Assembly: GCF_016026235.1 (NCBI RefSeq)
Contig: NZ_CP065613.1
Strand: one strand, 5' to 3'
Source: Escherichia coli
GTDB taxonomy: Bacteria > Pseudomonadota > Gammaproteobacteria > Enterobacterales > Enterobacteriaceae
DNA: 64,000 bases
The translations under genes were made by a program, and so were the position numbers. Below the pieces are notes generated by a model that was given only the letters and a program-made list of their open reading frames with translations, made no database searches and was not told the DNA's origin. Positions 28,210 to 50,600 of this stretch are shown piece after piece; position 1 is the stretch's first letter, and the number at the start of each line of letters is the position of its first letter.

Positions 28210-29988
28210 ATGGAGCTTGCTACTACGCAGTCAGTATTGATGCAAATTCAACCGACAATTCAGCGTTTTGCCAGAATGCTTGCCAGCGTTTTGCAGCTTG
28301 AGGTTGAGATCGTTGATGAAAACTTGTGTCGCGTCGCCGGAACGGGCGCGTATGGGAAGTTTCTTGGTCGCCAGTTGAGCGGCAACTCACGCCTGCTCCG
28401 CCACGTCCTGGAAACGAAAACTGAAAAAGTTGTGACACAGTCTCGCTTCGATCCCCTTTGCGAAGGTTGCGATAGTAAAGAAAATTGCCGCGAAAAAGCA
28501 TTTCTGGGTACGCCTGTCATTTTACAGGATCGTTGTGTTGGGGTGATAAGTTTGATTGCCGTTACCCACGAGCAACAAGAGCATATCAGTGATAATTTAC
28601 GCGAATTTTCTGATTATGTTCGCCATATATCCACCATTTTTGTTTCGAAACTTCTGGAGGATCAGGGGCCAGGAGATAACATCAGTAAAATATTCGCGAC
28701 CATGATCGATAATATGGATCAGGGCGTATTAGTTGTTGATGATGAAAGTCGGGTTCAGTTTGTTAATCAGACTGCCTTAAAAACACTTGGCGTTGTACAA
28801 AATAATATTATTGGGAAACCTATCCGTTTCAGACCATTAACATTTGAGAGTAATTTTACCCATGGACATATGCAGCATATTGTTTCGTGGGACGATAAAA
28901 GTGAATTAATCATTGGTCAATTGCATAACATTCAGGGCCGACAATTATTTTTAATGGCGTTTCACCAATCGCATACCAGTTTTTCTGTAGCAAATGCACC
29001 TGATGAACCACATATTGAACAATTGGTTGGCGAGTGCCGTGTTATGCGGCAATTAAAACGACTCATTAGCCGTATTGCACCCAGCCCATCCAGCGTTATG
29101 GTGGTTGGTGAAAGCGGCACGGGTAAAGAAGTCGTCGCCCGTGCAATCCATAAGTTGAGCGGAAGACGGAATAAACCCTTTATTGCTATCAACTGTGCCG
29201 CGATTCCGGAGCAGCTTCTGGAGAGCGAACTGTTCGGTTATGTTAAAGGCGCATTTACTGGCGCTTCTGCCAACGGTAAAACAGGGTTGATTCAGGCGGC
29301 GAATACGGGCACGCTGTTTCTCGATGAAATAGGTGATATGCCATTAATGTTGCAGGCTAAATTACTGCGCGCTATTGAGGCACGTGAAATTCTGCCGATT
29401 GGTGCCAGTAGCCCAATACAAGTCGACATTCGCATCATTTCTGCAACTAACCAGAATTTGGCCCAGTTCATTGCCGAAGGTAAATTCCGCGAAGATCTCT
29501 TCTACCGACTTAATGTTATCCCGATAACTCTGCCACCGCTGCGTGAACGTCAGGAAGATATTGAACTACTGGTGCATTACTTTTTACATCTGCATACCCG
29601 TCGTCTGGGATCGGTTTATCCTGGCATTGCTCCCGATGTCGTCGAAATATTGCGTAAGCATCGTTGGCCCGGAAACCTGCGCGAGTTAAGCAATTTGATG
29701 GAATATCTGGTTAACGTTGTTCCTTCAGGTGAAGTTATCGACAGCACGCTATTGCCGCCAAATCTGCTGAATAATGGCACAACGGAGCAAAGTGATGTAA
29801 CAGAGGTCACTGAGGCACACCTGTCACTCGATGATGCGGGCGGCACGGCGCTGGAGGAGATGGAAAAGCAAATGATCCGCGAGGCGCTTTCACGTCATAA
29901 CAGCAAGAAGCAAGTTGCTGATGAACTGGGCATCGGCATTGCTACGCTCTATCGCAAGATTAAGAAATATGAGTTGTTAAACACATAA
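28210..29988 (+). CDS. ygeV: Sigma54-dependent transcriptional activator (enhancer-binding protein), 592 aa
   Basis: AAA+ sigma54-interaction motifs (GESGTGKE, GAFTGA) and C-terminal HTH; divergent from ygeW. Confidence 0.9.
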   Translation: MELATTQSVLMQIQPTIQRFARMLASVLQLEVEIVDENLCRVAGTGAYGKFLGRQLSGNSRLLRHVLETKTEKVVTQSRFDPLCEGCDSKENCREKAFLGTPVILQDRCVGVISLIAVTHEQQEHISDNLREFSDYVRHISTIFVSKLLEDQGPGDNISKIFATMIDNMDQGVLVVDDESRVQFVNQTALKTLGVVQNNIIGKPIRFRPLTFESNFTHGHMQHIVSWDDKSELIIGQLHNIQGRQLFLMAFHQSHTSFSVANAPDEPHIEQLVGECRVMRQLKRLISRIAPSPSSVMVVGESGTGKEVVARAIHKLSGRRNKPFIAINCAAIPEQLLESELFGYVKGAFTGASANGKTGLIQAANTGTLFLDEIGDMPLMLQAKLLRAIEAREILPIGASSPIQVDIRIISATNQNLAQFIAEGKFREDLFYRLNVIPITLPPLRERQEDIELLVHYFLHLHTRRLGSVYPGIAPDVVEILRKHRWPGNLRELSNLMEYLVNVVPSGEVIDSTLLPPNLLNNGTTEQSDVTEVTEAHLSLDDAGGTALEEMEKQMIREALSRHNSKKQVADELGIGIATLYRKIKKYELLNT

Positions 29989-31392: not shown

Positions 31393-33651
31393 TCAAATCA
31401 ATCCTGCCAGATGGAACTCTTCATATAACCGTTTTGGCGTCAGCGGCAGTGTATTGATTGCAACACCGGTAGCCATCTTCACCGCGTTACGAATAGCAGC
31501 GGCAACAGGAATTATTGGTGGCTCACCCAGTGACTTATGTCCGTATGCGGATTGCGGCTCATTGATTTCGACGAACGCGCTTTCCAGTTGTGGCAGATCC
31601 GGCATGGTCGGCATTTTGTAATCCAGCAGATTGGGGTTACGGACCACGCCGCTTTTAGCATCGATGATCATCTCTTCAAATAGCGCCCAGCCAATGCCCA
31701 TTCCCATTCCGCCGTGTACCTGACCTTCTGCCAGCAGTGGATTAAGAATATGCCCTGAATCATGAACGTTGAGGATGCGGTTGATGGTGACTTTGCACAG
31801 CGCAATATCGACCGTCAGATCAACAAAGGTACAGCCAAACGCCGGTGGGTTAGTGGTGGTTTTGATGGAGCTTTCAGCAGAGAGCTGCCCGCCGCGTTCA
31901 GGGTGGTAGAAAGCGTCCATCGCCAAATCTTTTAACGACATTAACGGCTCTTCCGGTCGTTCAACCAGCACGATATGGCCTTTTATCAGGGTCAGATTCA
32001 TCGCTGACTGATGTAGCATGACTGCGGCGTGAGCGATGATTTTCTCTTTTAATAATAGTGCCGCACTGCGCAGCGCAGGCGCGGCAACATAGCTCTGGCG
32101 TGAGGCAAATGCGCCGGGATCGAACGGCGTAACGTCGGTATCTTGAGTTGAAATAACGCGAACGTCGCTGACGGGAACCCCCACGGTTTCTGCCACCATT
32201 TGCGAGAAGACGGTGTCGGCACCCTGACCGATTTCCGTCGCGCCGCTTTGCACGTTGATGGTTCCATCCTGATTCATCAGAAGGCGCGCGCCTGCTATTT
32301 CTACGCCGACAGGCCAGGTGTTAGAGGTGTAGCTAAAACAGGCGACGCCAACGCCGCGGCGCAAATTGCCTTGCTGGTTCTGGCATTCTGCACGGCGTTT
32401 TTCCCATTCAAAGATTTTCCGGCCTTTTTCAAGACACTCCGGCAACCCTGCGCTGTAAATACGTTTGCCCGTGAGCGGATTAGCATCTCCTTCGCGGGCG
32501 GCGTTGCGTAAACGAATTTCAGCAGGATCAATACCTAACGCTGTCGCGGCGTCATCAAGCATAGACTCAACGGCAAATACGACTTGTGGCGCGCCATAAC
32601 CACGCATCGCACCAGCCGAGGGGTGGTTGGTATAGCAGGTCTTTGAACTGTAAGCGTAGGCACAACGAGGATAAAGGTAAGCGACTTTATTCCCCCCCGC
32701 AGAAGCGATGGAGTGCCCGTGAGATGCATAAGCGCCGGTGTTAGACAGAACATCCAGACTATAACCTTTCAATGTTCCGTCGCGGTTCACGCCCATTTGC
32801 CCGTCAATGGTAAAAGCGTGGCGGGTACGGGTTGCGAGGAAACACTCTTCACGGCTAAGGGAAACTTTCACCGGAATGCCGCCAAGCTTGCTGGTCAGGA
32901 ATGCCGCCATTGGCTCTTCCAGTACATCCTGTTTATTACCAAAACCGCCACCGACAAATGGTTTGATGACTCGTACGCATGACCAGGGAATATCCAGCGC
33001 CTGACCAACCACGCGGCGAACAATGTGCGGGATCTGGGTGCTGGAAACGATGGTAATTCGCGAGTCATCCTCCATCCACGCCAGCGATGTTACGCTTTCC
33101 ATGTGACAATGTTGAATAACGGGGGTCTGATAGTGCCCCTGTACCTGGTAGTCGGCGGCATCGATTGTTTGTTGGACATTACCCGTCGACATCGTGCTTT
33201 GTTTCAGTAAATTGCCACCGTTATGGATTGGTGCAGCGTCTTCTGCCAGCGCCGCTTCTGGCGTGGTGATAACGGGTAATTCTTGCCACTCAATGCTGAC
33301 CAATTGCGCCGCTTTTTCTGCCGTGAGTTCATCGCGGGCCACGACGATGGCAACGGCGTCACCATGATGACGAACATGGCGAGTTAGCAGTGCGCGATCG
33401 GCGGTATCGCGCTTGTTTTCGTCAAGTGTCCAGGCATGCCCAGCTGTAGCGAATGGAATATCAGGCACATCTTCCCAGGTAAAAATCGCCAGTACGCCCG
33501 GCAAACTTCTGGCTTGTTCATCATTAATACTTACGGCATAACCATGTGCGATAGGGCTACGTACATATTTCGCATAACACATGCCCGCCATAACATAATC
33601 GTCAGTATATCGTGCCCGCCCGGTGACCTTAGCAATGGCATCGACGCGCAT
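31393..33651 (-). CDS. xdhA: Xanthine dehydrogenase molybdenum-binding subunit, 752 aa (start MRVDAIAK)
   Basis: Size and synteny; internal start gives the expected length. Confidence 0.9.
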   Translation of the reverse strand: MRVDAIAKVTGRARYTDDYVMAGMCYAKYVRSPIAHGYAVSINDEQARSLPGVLAIFTWEDVPDIPFATAGHAWTLDENKRDTADRALLTRHVRHHGDAVAIVVARDELTAEKAAQLVSIEWQELPVITTPEAALAEDAAPIHNGGNLLKQSTMSTGNVQQTIDAADYQVQGHYQTPVIQHCHMESVTSLAWMEDDSRITIVSSTQIPHIVRRVVGQALDIPWSCVRVIKPFVGGGFGNKQDVLEEPMAAFLTSKLGGIPVKVSLSREECFLATRTRHAFTIDGQMGVNRDGTLKGYSLDVLSNTGAYASHGHSIASAGGNKVAYLYPRCAYAYSSKTCYTNHPSAGAMRGYGAPQVVFAVESMLDDAATALGIDPAEIRLRNAAREGDANPLTGKRIYSAGLPECLEKGRKIFEWEKRRAECQNQQGNLRRGVGVACFSYTSNTWPVGVEIAGARLLMNQDGTINVQSGATEIGQGADTVFSQMVAETVGVPVSDVRVISTQDTDVTPFDPGAFASRQSYVAAPALRSAALLLKEKIIAHAAVMLHQSAMNLTLIKGHIVLVERPEEPLMSLKDLAMDAFYHPERGGQLSAESSIKTTTNPPAFGCTFVDLTVDIALCKVTINRILNVHDSGHILNPLLAEGQVHGGMGMGIGWALFEEMIIDAKSGVVRNPNLLDYKMPTMPDLPQLESAFVEINEPQSAYGHKSLGEPPIIPVAAAIRNAVKMATGVAINTLPLTPKRLYEEFHLAGLI

Positions 33652-34104
33652 GCATGATTCACCCGTAGCGGTTGCTTCCCGCGCTTCCATAGAAATCCCC
33701 TCGATTTGAACATTTGGTTCTTATGGCAAAGATTTAGTCTAAGCAGGCAAGATTTACGCCAGAAACGACGATAAGCGTTAGGGGAGGTAGGAAGTGTGAT
33801 GACGTTAAAAAAACACAGATATGATACGAAACAGGACTCTGAATAGGGGCAGTGATACGTATCAATATGAGTGGCGATAAAATCAATGTGATAAATTGGG
33901 ATTATTACGCATCAGGATGGGAAATAGGGTAAAAAGTCAGGAAGTTCGATACCTCTACAGCGAATATTTTGCTGATGATACTTCCCTTTGCCAAATGAAA
34001 TTAACCTCTTTCTCTATTACCACGTTTTTCCAGAAGCAAGAGATTGGGTATCAAGAGGCTGGCTGCTATGATAAGGCGTCTTGTTTTTTAAGCGAGGAAA
34101 GATT

Positions 34105-34860
34105 TTGAGTGCGGGACGCCTGAATAAAAAATCTCTGGGTATCGTGATGTTGTTATCGGTTGGACTGCTTTTGGCGGGCTGTTCGGGTAGCAAATCATCC
34201 GATACAGGAACGTATTCCGGCTCCGTTTACACCGTGAAACGGGGGGATACGCTATATCGTATTTCGCGCACCACGGGAACCAGCGTAAAAGAACTGGCGC
34301 GACTGAACGGCATTTCCCCCCCTTACACCATTGAAGTTGGTCAGAAACTAAAACTGGGTGGGGCGAAAAGTAGCAGTAGTACACGTAAATCAACCGCCAA
34401 ATCAACGACCAAAACCGCATCGGTTACACCGTCATCAGCGGTACCGAAATCTTCCTGGCCGCCAGTAGGGCAACGTTGTTGGTTATGGCCAACGACAGGG
34501 AAAGTTATCATGCCGTATTCGACAGCAGATGGCGGCAATAAAGGGATTGATATCTCAGCTCCACGGGGTACACCTATTTACGCCGCGGGTGCAGGAAAGG
34601 TGGTGTATGTGGGCAACCAGCTGCGTGGCTACGGTAATCTCATCATGATTAAACACAGTGAAGATTACATTACGGCTTACGCCCATAATGACACGATGCT
34701 GGTAAATAATGGGCAAAGCGTGAAGGCTGGGCAAAAAATCGCCACTATGGGGAGCACGGATGCGGCATCTGTTCGCCTGCATTTCCAGATTCGTTACCGT
34801 GCAACGGCAATTGATCCGCTACGTTACTTGCCGCCGCAGGGCAGCAAGCCAAAATGCTGA
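34105..34860 (+). CDS. ygeR: LysM / M23-peptidase-domain lipoprotein, 251 aa, probable TTG start
   Basis: Lipobox LLAGCSGS, LysM-like YTVKRGDTLYRISR, M23-like C-terminus; divergent from xdhA. Confidence 0.85.
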   Translation: MSAGRLNKKSLGIVMLLSVGLLLAGCSGSKSSDTGTYSGSVYTVKRGDTLYRISRTTGTSVKELARLNGISPPYTIEVGQKLKLGGAKSSSSTRKSTAKSTTKTASVTPSSAVPKSSWPPVGQRCWLWPTTGKVIMPYSTADGGNKGIDISAPRGTPIYAAGAGKVVYVGNQLRGYGNLIMIKHSEDYITAYAHNDTMLVNNGQSVKAGQKIATMGSTDAASVRLHFQIRYRATAIDPLRYLPPQGSKPKC

Positions 34861-34938
34861 TGGCGAATTAATCAGCAGTCAGCAGCGCGGCACTTGCTAA
34901 GGAGAGCGTAAGGTTTATAATGCCTTACGCATCTCGAA

Positions 34939-35012
34939 GCGGGCGTAGTTCAATGGTAGAACGAGAGCTTCCCAAGCTCTATACGAGGGTTCGATTCCCT
35001 TCGCCCGCTCCA
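34939..35012 (+). tRNA. glyU: tRNA-Gly (anticodon CCC)
   Basis: 74-nt GCGGGCGTAGTTCAATGGTAGAACGAGAGCTTCCCAAGCTCTATACGAGGGTTCGATTCCCTTCGCCCGCTCCA with 7-bp acceptor stem, CCC anticodon loop, T-loop GGTTCGATTCC and 3' CCA. Confidence 0.9.
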
Positions 35013-35245
35013 ATTTATCTTCACCTCATCAATCTGCCATTTTTGCTGTATCTGATTTTCTATATTATCTTAATTCAATCGCTTCAGACTTTTCGCAATC
35101 GCCGTAATATTTCCCCATTTTGTTGTAAATAAAAAGCGTTTACGCAATGCAATCCTTTTGTAACAACCCAGGTAAAACACCTTATTTTCAAGTTGTTAAA
35201 TAAGTGGTTATCTACGCTTTTAACAAACGATTGATGGAATATTTT

Positions 35246-35301
35246 ATGAAAGGGAAATCTGCATTAACTCTTCTGCTCGCTGGTATATTTTCGTGCGGCA
35301 C
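35246..35301 (+). pseudogene. 5' fragment (18 codons) of an ORF with a signal-peptide-like N-terminus, cut by the IS1 left end
   Basis: ATG at 35246 gives MKGKSALTLLLAGIFSCG..., then the IS1 inverted repeat begins at 35302; identity not recognised. Confidence 0.3.
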
Positions 35302-35356
35302 GGTGATGCTGCCAACTTACTGATTTAGTGTATGATGGTGTTTTTGAGGTGCTCCA

Positions 35357-35632
35357 GTGGCTTCTGTTTCTATCAGCTGTCCCTCCTGTTCAGCTACTGA
35401 CGGGGTGGTGCGTAACGGCAAAAGCACCGCCGGACATCAGCGCTATCTCTGCTCTCACTGCCGTAAAACATGGCAACTGCAGTTCACTTACACCGCTTCT
35501 CAACCCGGTACGCACCAGAAAATCATTGATATGGCCATGAATGGCGTTGGATGCCGGGCAACTGCCCGCATTATGGGCGTTGGCCTCAACACGATTTTAC
35601 GTCACTTAAAAAACTCAGGCCGCAGTCGGTAA
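35357..35632 (+). CDS. insA: IS1 InsA, 91 aa
   Basis: Protein [43 protein letters not shown]... is the IS1 InsA sequence. Confidence 0.9.
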
Positions 35633-36054
35633 CCTCGCGCATACAGCCGGGCAGTGACGTCATCGTCTGCGCGGAAATGGACGAACAGTGGGGCTATGTC
35701 GGGGCTAAATCGCGCCAGCGCTGGCTGTTTTACGCGTATGACAGTCTCCGGAAGACGGTTGTTGCGCACGTATTCGGTGAACGCACTATGGCGACGCTGG
35801 GGCGTCTTATGAGCCTGCTGTCACCCTTTGACGTGGTGATATGGATGACGGATGGCTGGCCGCTGTATGAATCCCGCCTGAAGGGAAAGCTGCACGTAAT
35901 CAGCAAGCGATATACGCAGCGAATTGAGCGGCATAACCTGAATCTGAGGCAGCACCTGGCACGGCTGGGACGGAAGTCGCTGTCGTTCTCAAAATCGGTG
36001 GAGCTGCATGACAAAGTCATCGGGCATTATCTGAACATAAAACACTATCAATAA
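35551..36054 (+). CDS. insB: IS1 InsB reading frame (expressed as InsAB' by frameshifting)
   Basis: 167-aa ORF overlapping insA, typical IS1 organisation. Confidence 0.85.
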
Positions 36055-36069
36055 GTTGGAGTCATTACC

Positions 36070-36248
36070 CGTCGGGTCAATGTCAATGGTGGCGCGATCG
36101 CACTCGGTCACCCGATAGGCGCTTCCGGTTGCCGAATCCTGGTTTCTCTGGTTCATGAAATGGTGAAACGTAATGCCCGCAAAGGGCTGGCAACGCTTTG
36201 TATCGGCGGGGGCCAGGGCGTGGCATTGACCATTGAACGTGACGAGTA
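36070..36248 (+). pseudogene. yqeF: 3' remnant (about 59 codons) of a thiolase gene, truncated by IS1
   Basis: In-frame C-terminus ...[54 protein letters not shown] is a thiolase tail; sits upstream of kduI as yqeF does in K-12. Confidence 0.7.
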
Positions 36249-36405
36249 GCTCTGCATTTCCTCCTTACCGATAAATATCTGCCGTCATTAATCTGTTGAA
36301 TAATGATGGCTGGCAAGTCGACATTCATTTTCTGGGCTCCCTCATTTTTCCATTCTCATGACATATTCGTGATCGACACTGCACTTTTTTTAATCCTTAA
36401 CTTAA

Positions 36406-36426
36406 AAATGAAACATTGTTTTATTT
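36406..36426. promoter_or_regulatory. KdgR-operator-like palindrome upstream of kduI
   Basis: AAATGAAACATTGTTTTATTT resembles the KdgR box AATGAAACAnTGTTTCATT. Confidence 0.35.
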
Positions 36427-36473
36427 TTAATTGAAAACCCTAGCCCATGGGCATATCATCCCTTTATAGAGAA

Positions 36474-36491
36474 AACGAAACAGTGTTTCAC
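36474..36491. promoter_or_regulatory. Second KdgR-like palindrome upstream of kduI
   Basis: AACGAAACAGTGTTTCAC, inverted repeat GAAACA-N-TGTTTC, about 45 bp upstream of the kduI GTG start. Confidence 0.35.
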
Positions 36492-36535
36492 TATCGTTTT
36501 CTATTTTCACGCTTCACTGATTATCGGAGGTTGAT

Positions 36536-37372
36536 GTGGACGTAAGACAGAGCATCCACAGTGCGCACGCAAAAACGCTGGATACCCAAGGGCTGCGCAA
36601 TGAATTTTTGGTTGAAAAGGTATTTGTCGCCGATGAGTACACCATGGTTTACAGCCACATTGACCGAATTATTGTTGGCGGCATTATGCCGATAACTAAA
36701 ACGGTTTCCGTTGGCGGGGAAGTTGGTAAACAACTCGGCGTAAGCTATTTCCTTGAACGTCGCGAGTTAGGTGTTATCAATATTGGCGGTGCCGGTACGA
36801 TTACTGTCGATGGCCAATGCTATGAAATCGGTCACCGCGACGCCCTGTATGTTGGTAAAGGTGCAAAAGAAGTTGTCTTTGCCAGTATTGATACCGCCAC
36901 TCCGGCAAAGTTTTATTACAATTGCGCACCCGCGCATACGACGTATCCCACCAAAAAAGTCACACCGGACGAAGTATCTCCAGTCACGTTAGGCGATAAC
37001 CTCACCAGTAACCGTCGCACAATTAACAAATATTTTGTCCCGGATGTGCTGGAAACCTGCCAATTGAGTATGGGGCTGACGGAGCTGGCTCCAGGTAACT
37101 TGTGGAACACCATGCCGTGTCACACTCACGAGCGCCGGATGGAAGTTTATTTCTATTTCAATATGGATGATGACGCCTGCGTTTTCCACATGATGGGGCA
37201 GCCGCAAGAAACGCGTCACATTGTGATGCATAACGAGCAGGCGGTGATCTCCCCGAGCTGGTCGATTCATTCCGGCGTCGGAACCAAAGCTTATACCTTT
37301 ATCTGGGGCATGGTCGGTGAAAACCAGGTCTTTGATGATATGGACCATGTGGCCGTTAAAGATTTGCGCTAG
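36536..37372 (+). CDS. kduI: 5-dehydro-4-deoxy-D-glucuronate isomerase, 278 aa (GTG start)
   Basis: [24 protein letters not shown]... matches KduI. Confidence 0.95.
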
Positions 37373-49148: not shown

Positions 49149-49161
49149 CAGCCGGATGCTG
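49149..49161. repeat. IS4 target-site duplication, left copy (CAGCCGGATGCTG)
   Basis: 13-bp direct repeat flanking IS4, identical to 50588..50600. Confidence 0.7.
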
Positions 49162-50587
49162 TAATGCCAGTCAGTTAAGCAACTGACTGGCTCTTTTTCG
49201 GGGCTGTGGGGTATTTCCAGGGCCTCTCCTTTACCACTCTCGGGAAGGCCCTTCCCCTTCTCGTCGGTAATTTCACAAGTTGTCCCATACTTGCAAGATC
49301 GCGCATCAGCTCCGGTATACGTCCCGGTGAAGCGCCCTGCAATGTCATCAGCATTCTCATCACCATTCCGCATGATTCTGAGAAACTCAGTTGATTCGGC
49401 CAGTAACCTTTCAGATGTTCCGCCATTTTAATCATCTGATATCTCACCAGATTATAAGCCAGTAAGACACCCCACAGCTCTTGCTCCACAAGCTCCGGCT
49501 TTTTACTTCTCAGCGTCAGCCTGCTCAGTTGCATCGTCTGTTTTATCTCCCTGTATCCCAGTTCGATTTCCCAGCGATGACTGTACAGATCCGCCATTTC
49601 TCCTCCGGGGAAGCGCATGGCGTCCGTCATCGACGTCAGCAGATGGCAGACTTTTCCTTTGCGCGTCACGGTCAGCAGGCGGGCTGTCACTTCATTTCCC
49701 AGTCCCGGCCACTTTTTTCGTGCCTGCGGGCTGGTTTTCAGCTTCACCAGATGATCGCCTTTACCCAGTTTTCTGAGCTCTTCATATTGCGCTCCCTTTC
49801 TGAGAGGTATCATCCAGTGGCGGTGTTCTCCCGCCAGGCTCCAGGCATTTAACAGTCCCAGTGAGTAATAACCTTTATCCATTAACGTCAGAGTGTTATC
49901 GCCGGTTTGTTCTATAAGTTGCTCAGCAAGCTCATTTTCGCTGTTCTTCATCGTGCCGAAGGCTGCAGCCGTCAGCAGATGGCTGGTCAGTTCCATCTGG
50001 CAGACCATTTTGACCTGCGGGTAGAGCGCCGGGTTCCCGGCATGTGTCTGGCGGGGGAAGGCTGCATCGTTCTCTGGTGTATCCGGTGTGCGCCAGAACA
50101 CACCATCGATGGCCAGCAGGGTCAGGCCGCACCAGTGCGGATGCGGCGTGGCGTTATGCCAGAGCTGCGCTGTTTTCGTGAACACGCGGCGGACAGCCTC
50201 ACTTCCCAGGCGCTGGCGGGCCTGAATAACGGCACTGGGGGCAACGAAGGGGCGATTGCCCGGCAGCATGATGTCCAGGCGATTCACAATCTGGTGAAGA
50301 GGTTCTTTACGCTCAAGCGCCATGCCAACAATACACCAGACCATCATTTCGAGGGGAAGACGGCGCTTGCGTAGCGTTACAGTACCTGATTCGGCAAGGC
50401 AACGAGAGATGAGTTCGGGGTCGAGGTAATCCCCCAGAGAAGTCAGTGGGTTACGCAGAGAATCGTAACGGGATACCAGATCAAGAGCCTGTCCAATGTG
50501 CATAAAAAAATCCGGAAACAAGTGAGCGTTTCCGGATTCTTACACAGCCACTGGATCGGTCAACTGATCCTTAACTGATCGGCATTA
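49162..50587 (-). mobile_element. IS4 (1426 bp)
   Basis: Terminal inverted repeats TAATGCCAGTCAGTTAAG (left) and CTTAACTGATCGGCATTA (right); encodes the IS4 transposase; flanked by a 13-bp direct repeat. Confidence 0.9.
49175..50503 (-). CDS. insG: IS4 transposase InsG, 442 aa (start [10 protein letters not shown])
   Basis: Sequence recognised as IS4 InsG. Confidence 0.9.
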
Positions 50588-50600
50588 CAGCCGGATGCTG
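50588..50600. repeat. IS4 target-site duplication, right copy (CAGCCGGATGCTG)
   Basis: Identical to 49149..49161. Confidence 0.7.

Follow-up and report, generated by a model that had tools for sequence, protein, structure and literature searches.

A probable two-step, insertion sequence-driven loss of ETT2 beside glyU in a natural clone of Escherichia coli

Results

Remnants of ygeQ and yqeF on either side of an IS1 element

The window analyzed here is a 64-kb stretch of the Escherichia coli chromosome (64,000 nucleotides of contig NZ_CP065613.1, RefSeq assembly GCF_016026235.1). The gene order at the locus is xdhA, actS (ygeR), glyU, a stub of ygeQ, IS1, a stub of yqeF, kduI, kduD, and araE. 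The glyU gene, which encodes tRNA-Gly(CCC), was located by ARAGORN at 34939..35012 on the + strand, is annotated as tRNA-Gly/glyU in loci L001, L002, L007, and L008, and lies 289 bp upstream of IS1. It is the chromosomal anchor of the ETT2 island. The native spacer between glyU and ygeQ was kept (35013..35245, + strand) and falls inside a stretch of 2,301 bp (33001-35301) that was 100% identical to strain FDAARGOS_943. The 1,001 bp directly left of IS1 showed 100% identity with strain 504239 too.

To the left of IS1, the first-pass annotation had noticed an ORF that is cut after 18 codons. We identified this ORF as ygeQ. Its 5' stub (35246..35301, + strand, ATG at 35246) consists of 18 codons plus 2 nt, MKGKSALTLLLAGIFSCG, so that only 56 bp of ygeQ survive in the window. 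In thousands of genomes, the stub matches a gene annotated as ygeQ or as glycoside hydrolase family 15, as well as the annotated gene in loci L001, L002, L008, and L009. The gene encodes a GH15-family putative lipoprotein, corresponds to the ETT2 gene ECs3736/pkgA, and is the glyU-proximal gene of the island. A possibility was that the ancestors of the window had never carried ETT2. We rejected it, since the persistence of the ygeQ 5' end shows that the lineage once carried this island.

On the right side of IS1, a yqeF-like thiolase gene had been proposed to abut the element with only its last 59 codons, and this is exactly what we found. The yqeF 3' stub (acetyl-CoA C-acetyltransferase; 36070..36249, + strand) starts at R335 of 393 and contains residues 335-393 of YqeF plus the stop codon. 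The latter occupies 36247-36249, and the span first assigned to the whole feature was therefore one base short at its end (36248). The break in the full-length YqeF translation is ...MLEWDE/RRVNVNGG, and the stub was 100% identical to the yqeF 3' end of FDAARGOS_943. Intact YqeF homologues carry PF00108 and PF02803 over 393 aa, and the window stub has neither a full Thiolase_N nor a full Thiolase_C domain. As judged from its coding sequence, yqeF in the window is non-functional, the entire N-terminal domain with the catalytic cysteine region being lost. The yqeG gene was absent from the window.

Further right, the yqeF-kduI spacer (36250..36535, + strand) was kept, and with it the upstream region of kduI, including a predicted promoter-like site at 36431-36459. 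The first intact gene right of the scar is kduI itself (36536..37372, + strand), an ORF annotated as kduI in FDAARGOS_943 (L002) and BL21 (L007). The KduI protein was identical in these two loci and in L003.

A complete IS1 that lacks a target-site duplication

The element at 35302..36069 (+ strand) was recognized by its inverted repeats and ORFs as a complete, IS1A-like IS1 of 768 bp. It is bounded by 23-nt imperfect inverted repeats, IRL at 35302-35324 (GGTGATGCTGCCAACTTACTGAT) and IRR at 36047-36069 (ATCAATAAGTTGGAGTCATTACC). Two overlapping ORFs are present on the + strand, insA (35357-35632, 91 aa) and insB' (35551-36054, 167 aa), together with the A6C motif for the -1 frameshift between them at 35606 (TTAAAAAACTC). 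Size, terminal repeats, and the insA/insB' arrangement with its A6C frameshift are those of the IS1 family. As a matter of fact, the window IS1 was 100% identical to elements annotated as IS1A, including one in strain C21 (L040), and the 232-aa InsAB' of an identical copy in L003 bears PF03811, PF12759, and PF03400, in agreement with the InsA zinc-ribbon, HTH, and DDE domains of an IS1 transposase.

We found no 9-bp target-site duplication around this IS1, in line with the first-pass annotation: the flanks, GTGCGGCAC and CGTCGGGTC, match at 4 of 9 positions, and no matching direct repeats flank the element. A simple IS1 insertion has a duplication of 9 bp (8-11 bp). Because its flanks are unmatched, the element, while still an IS1, is not in a simple-insertion context. 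Two controls showed what simple insertions look like. In ECSD228, an IS1 inserted in the glyU-ygeQ spacer, ~40 bp upstream of ygeQ, has the 9-bp duplication CTACGCTTT on both sides, and an IS4 in the same window keeps its 13-bp duplication CAGCCGGATGCTG (49149-49161 and 50588-50600). This IS4 (1,426 bp, 49162-50587) lies between tas and ygdR and is found neither in FDAARGOS_943 nor in BL21; its site is likewise occupied in VR50, CUVM3, and CPww7 (100% query coverage).

Extent of the missing interval

We mapped both break points of the window onto reference genomes, and alignment to island-bearing genomes fixed the endpoints at ygeQ codon 18 and yqeF codon 335. The interval missing from the window amounts to 30,033 bp in O157:H7 ATCC 43889, which has a full ETT2, to 22,397 bp in strain 504239, which has a K-12-like remnant, and to 14,182 bp in K-12 MG1655. 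It is much shorter in FDAARGOS_943 (6,568 bp), BL21(DE3) (5,234 bp), and GCA_901482675.2 (4,006 bp). About 20 kb had been thought to separate glyU from yqeF in K-12; the actual distance from glyU to the yqeF start is 13.4 kb.

The position of the ETT2 locus was confirmed as adjoining glyU, between actS/ygeR and the yqeG/yqeF side. Neither the O157 interval (L009 2696-32728) nor the FDAARGOS_943 interval had a match elsewhere in the 64-kb window, and no match was found there for the type III secretion genes of the eiv, epa, and epr sets or for the yge/yqe regulators. Both flanks are colinear with the reference genomes. An inversion was considered and rejected: since both flanks keep the reference orientation, the event was a deletion. 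The start of this deletion coincides with the terminal base of IS1. No microhomology was found between its endpoints, whose contexts in FDAARGOS_943 are ...GCGGCAC/ATGCCAG... and ...GGATGAG/CGTCGGG... (the slash marks the break point).

The junctions in other genomes

The right junction was found in none of the 5,426 complete RefSeq E. coli genomes (no place covering at least 80% of the query), and the left junction did not occur as a single contiguous match among the matches listed for complete E. coli genomes. The exact junction pair of the window was likewise absent from all 5,426 complete genomes. In 25 complete genomes, a same-orientation IS1 lies at most a few hundred bp away, in or near ygeQ. 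A scan for the left junction in a collection with one genome per species gave no match, which carries no weight at that sampling.

Members of the window's clone were found in public assemblies by exact-protein look-ups with the XdhA H356 and KduD N234 alleles. These alleles stem from derived nonsynonymous SNPs of the clone, XdhA L356H and KduD S234N (window 32624 and 38102). The AraE and YqeF alleles were very common (20,903 and 51,653 blocks) and bear no lineage information. The left junction, at IRL, was identical in the window, in GCA_031665325.1 (L003/L020), and in L004, and contigs L005 and L006 stop 28-29 bp inside IS1. The right junction of the window was also found in contigs L022 and L023.

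E. coli carries several copies of IS1, at which short-read contigs break (L004-L006 and L021-L023), and this might point to a collapsed or mis-joined IS1 repeat that artificially joins the glyU and kduI sides. The probability of such an assembly artefact is close to nil. Indeed, a 3.45-Mb contig of GCA_031665325.1 (L003/L020) runs through glyU-IS1-kduI, and in draft contigs from other samples the sequence stops in IS1 at precisely the two junctions of the window. Because the same junctions occur in independent assemblies, an artefact is excluded. The glyU-IS1-yqeF' arrangement is genuine and clonal.

Nested endpoints on the right side of IS1

Within the clone, IRR was found at three different endpoints. 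In L021 and six further contigs, it lies in yqeG near codon 90, and yqeF is intact. In the window, L022, and L023, it lies at yqeF codon 335. In GCA_031665325.1 (L003/L020), it lies at 36302, in the yqeF-kduI spacer, with a further 232 bp missing. All three endpoints have IS1 in the same orientation and are spread within 1.8 kb. Over ~7 kb of right flank, L020 and L021 showed no difference from the window, and L022 and L023 showed one each. The fixed left junction was read for the yqeF and spacer endpoints only, all seven contigs with the yqeG endpoint stopping in IS1. A look-up with the yqeG::IS1 fusion ORF likewise gave only short contigs that stop in the element. Diagnostic junction sequences of the locus are TTTTCGTGCGGCAC/GGTGATGCTGCC, GGAGTCATTACC/CGTCGGGTCAATG, GGAGTCATTACC/GTAATCAGATTACC, and GGAGTCATTACC/AATGATGGCTGG.

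A fixed end combined with a ladder of endpoints is the signature of stepwise IS1 adjacent deletion, the left end being read here for two of the three endpoints. There is about an even chance that one IS1 copy ate stepwise, in one direction, through yqeG and yqeF into the yqeF-kduI spacer in a natural clone. We are equally divided on whether the nested deletions in the window's clone make up a datable series. If they do, the series would be usable to measure how fast, and in steps of what size, IS1 adjacent deletion proceeds in nature, and one could ask whether the loss of yqeG/yqeF, or the presence of IS1 near kduI-kduD, is selected.

Another route to the same product is a RecA-mediated crossover between two direct IS1 copies, one at ygeQ codon 18 and the other at yqeF codon 335, that would leave one hybrid IS1 with unmatched duplication halves. 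Such recombination is a recognized cause of absent duplications (PMC11708052) and is expected to yield the same product, that is, an intact IS1 with no matching duplication and colinear flanks. Taken alone, this product fits both adjacent deletion and IS1-IS1 recombination, and the recurrence of a same-orientation IS1 near the ygeQ start in the 25 complete genomes speaks for recombination. However, the three right junctions in a near-identical clone would then require recombination after each of three same-orientation insertions in a 1.8-kb stretch, and no relative was found with two IS1 copies flanking the interval. We consider the crossover unlikely and favor adjacent deletion from IRR.

Incidentally, GCA_031665325.1 (L003) has a 10-bp deletion in ygeV (window 29648-29657), and no ygeV is called in it; ygeV is intact in the window.

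Other IS1-associated rearrangements were seen around glyU. In strain C21 (L040) and other poultry/animal isolates, an IS1 without duplication joins a truncated idi to actS, which implies that a large xdh-ygf block, on the other side of glyU, was deleted beside IS1. In GCA_054908925.1 (L025 4352-5119), an IS1 lies between yqeH and glpD, glpE, glpG, and glpR-type genes. This neighborhood points to an IS1-associated rearrangement that joins distant chromosome regions at the ETT2 site.

The closest relatives carry an older IS3 deletion

The closest complete genome, FDAARGOS_943, differs from the window at 3 positions in 7,956 bp of left flank and at 6 positions in 5,477 bp of right flank, and GCA_901482675.2 shows 5 differences in 13.5 kb. 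These are the two closest relatives, with a divergence of 0.04-0.07%. Unrelated ETT2-bearing strains that have the XdhA allele of FDAARGOS_943 were rejected as relatives on the basis of their 99.3-99.4% DNA identity on alignment.

In FDAARGOS_943, the locus consists of the first 534 bp of ygeQ, IS3, a yqeH fragment, IS2, yqeG, and yqeF, and contains no type III secretion genes. In GCA_901482675.2, the same ygeQ-bp-534/IS3 junction is present, IS3 adjoins yqeG, yqeF is intact, and secretion genes are again lacking. The ygeQ-bp-534/IS3 junction occurs in 190 complete genomes, including BL21 and REL606 (E. coli B) and strain C. The BL21 locus reads ygeQ', IS3, yqeH' (with the partner junction in yqeH), yqeG, and yqeF, and its IS3 event, compared with O157, corresponds to the loss of 26,063 bp with all eiv, epa, and epr genes. 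The IS2 of FDAARGOS_943, between the yqeH fragment and yqeG (L002 10347-11680), is not found in BL21. We also noted in FDAARGOS_943 yqeF a private G-to-A change that results in YqeF W305* (L002 14436).

FDAARGOS_943 turned out to be a mosaic with respect to BL21. IS3 and yqeH' are nearly identical in the two (1 difference in ~1.9 kb; L002 8435-11680 vs L007), whereas the ygeQ and yqeG-yqeF flanks differ by 1-1.6%, with differences reaching to within 4 bp of IS3. Recombination has thus moved alleles at this locus, the sequence pattern suggesting an exchange of the IS3 deletion allele or of its flanks. Because of this mosaic, a second relative was sought as a test of the ancestral state. The presence of the same ygeQ/IS3 junction in GCA_901482675.2 and the polarized SNPs described next support the FDAARGOS_943-type state as ancestral, short of proof.

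SNPs were polarized with outgroups, GCA_901482675.2 being tabulated on the left flank only. Seven derived SNPs fell to the window clone, four to FDAARGOS_943, and two to GCA_901482675.2 (left flank only). None of the polarized SNPs united the two relatives against the window. The three lineages thus form a polytomy, that is, a three-way split, with the IS3 state on two of the three branches. This indicated that the window's ancestor most likely already lacked the type III secretion genes. In the most parsimonious reading of these sequences, which we hold to be very probable, that ancestor already carried the IS3-type deletion.

Alternatively, an ETT2-bearing ancestor may have lost a large remnant of the island (14-30 kb, K-12-like or larger), along with yqeG and most of yqeF, in a single IS1 deletion. 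If the two relatives were a clade that gained the IS3 allele by recombination after the split, more of ETT2 could have been present in the ancestor of the window. The shuffling of the locus by recombination and the three-way split leave room for this scenario, as does the glyU-ygeQ flank of the window, which is 100% identical over 1 kb to that of 504239, a strain holding a 22-kb K-12-like remnant. Yet both relatives, at 0.04-0.07% divergence, are in the IS3 state, which is homologous to that of the 190 genomes, and no SNP was found for a two-relative clade excluding the window. Moreover, the yqeG'-yqeF stretch of the clone members with the yqeG junction is the same as in GCA_901482675.2 and is one site off FDAARGOS_943, and in YZ22PE67 an independent IS1 has replaced such an IS3 residue, judged by its BL21-like flank. 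A single large deletion appears quite improbable to us.

The tRNA gene beside IS1 had been viewed as a site of island integration. GCA_901482675.2 bore this out, since its glyU is occupied by a P4-like integrase island of 14.1 kb that has a 19-bp att repeat, which makes glyU a true integration site. The island sits in the glyU 3' end (L048 2010-16105), ahead of the ygeQ/IS3 junction, and was also seen in L049 and L050. Its cargo comprises an integrase, AlpA, AntA, a D5-type primase, SSB, a ProQ/FinO-like protein, PerC, an IS110-family transposase, and a SocA/Panacea protein. In the window, this site is empty.

Discussion

A proposed two-step history

We propose that ETT2 was lost from beside glyU in two IS-driven steps, the second of which left the scar seen at this locus, a reading that we regard as reasonably probable. 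The anatomy of the locus, its junctions, the arrangements in the relatives, and the nesting of the right endpoints are direct observations, from which we infer the order of events and a transposase-mediated mechanism.

The first step, which is old and is deduced for the window lineage from its relatives, would be an IS3-associated deletion from ygeQ bp 534 to yqeH. It would have removed ~26 kb, including every type III secretion gene. The second step would have taken place in the window's clone, from an IS1 with its IRL at ygeQ codon 18. Transposase would have driven intramolecular transposition from IRR into nearby DNA, that is, an adjacent deletion. This would have removed the rest of ygeQ, IS3, any yqeH' and IS2, yqeG, and the first 334 codons of yqeF, for a size of 4.0-6.6 kb depending on the ancestor variant, and probably in more than one increment (two or three). 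The absence of a target-site duplication would be explained because the right junction is a transposition junction that lacks its paired left one. A simple IS1 insertion at ygeQ codon 18 was found in no genome, which counts against this reading. As an outcome, yqeF and yqeG would have been inactivated and the last ETT2 traces erased, with the kduI upstream region being kept.

The first-pass annotation had read the locus as an IS1-mediated loss of the ETT2 remnant. This holds for the ygeQ-yqeF deletion, which is IS1-associated. It does not hold for the bulk of the island, which had probably gone by way of IS3, the IS1 step accounting for the 4.0-6.6 kb given above.

What we describe is a real and well delimited, yet ordinary, IS-mediated deletion of an already known kind. 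Since the mechanism and the decay of ETT2 are both well known, its scientific weight is low. It is mildly instructive for its layered history, with IS1 over an IS3 scar, and for its natural ladder of endpoints only. When an IS lies at a deletion scar, another element may have taken away the larger part of the missing DNA. At this locus, the bulk of the removal was most likely the work of IS3, and IS1 then erased the evidence, including IS3 itself. The nested endpoints offer a small natural example of stepwise IS-adjacent deletion, as documented in laboratory evolution. In practical terms, the junction pair is a clean lineage marker, being found in 0 of 5,426 complete E. coli genomes and in a small clone in public drafts.

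Comparison with known systems

Adjacent deletions promoted by IS1 through intramolecular transposition have long been known, the classical cases being deletions in the gal region. The window's deletion resembles them in that it starts at the IS end, keeps the IS, shows neither duplication nor microhomology, and has nested right junctions among its relatives, with the left junction the same in those contigs in which it was read. Unlike the classical cases, the window's clone is made of natural isolates and was not selected in the laboratory, and the mechanism is deduced from the products alone. Also, as compared with the classical series, the fixed left junction was read for the two larger deletions and not for the smallest one. 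More generally, IS elements without duplication arise by adjacent deletion or by IS-IS recombination (PMC11708052). Adjacent deletions often start small and extend with time, as seen for IS150 in the long-term evolution experiment (PMC11708052).

The IS3 deletion of E. coli B, BL21, REL606, and strain C retains the 5' 534 bp of ygeQ, IS3, a 189-aa YqeH fragment, yqeG, and yqeF. An IS3-type state of the BL21 kind is the probable immediate precursor of the window. With respect to this state, the window lacks IS3 and everything rightward of it to yqeF codon 334, and has IS1 there instead.

A close parallel was found in YZ22PE67 (L038), YZ22PE68, and YZ22PE106, in which the locus reads glyU-IS1-yqeG-yqeF, with no ETT2 and with a BL21-like flank. 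As in the window, an IS1 without duplication, of independent origin and in the same orientation, replaces ygeQ through yqeH by glyU. Unlike in the window, the endpoints are at ygeQ ~bp 108 and just past the yqeG 3' end, so that yqeG and yqeF are intact.

Mutational attrition of the ETT2 island at glyU was reportedly described by Ren et al. in 2004. ETT2 is a 29.9-kb island adjoining glyU that has been widely eroded by mutation and occurs in many deletion isoforms (PMC3977695, PMC11068852). These isoforms lack from few to many genes, and some E. albertii strains keep only yqeF and yqeG (PMC3977695, PMC11068852). The window is in keeping with this known attrition, since the same locus and flanking genes are involved and the loss proceeds via deletions and IS elements. 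Unlike the known isoforms, it has also lost yqeG and the greater part of yqeF, two genes situated immediately outside the 29.9-kb island.
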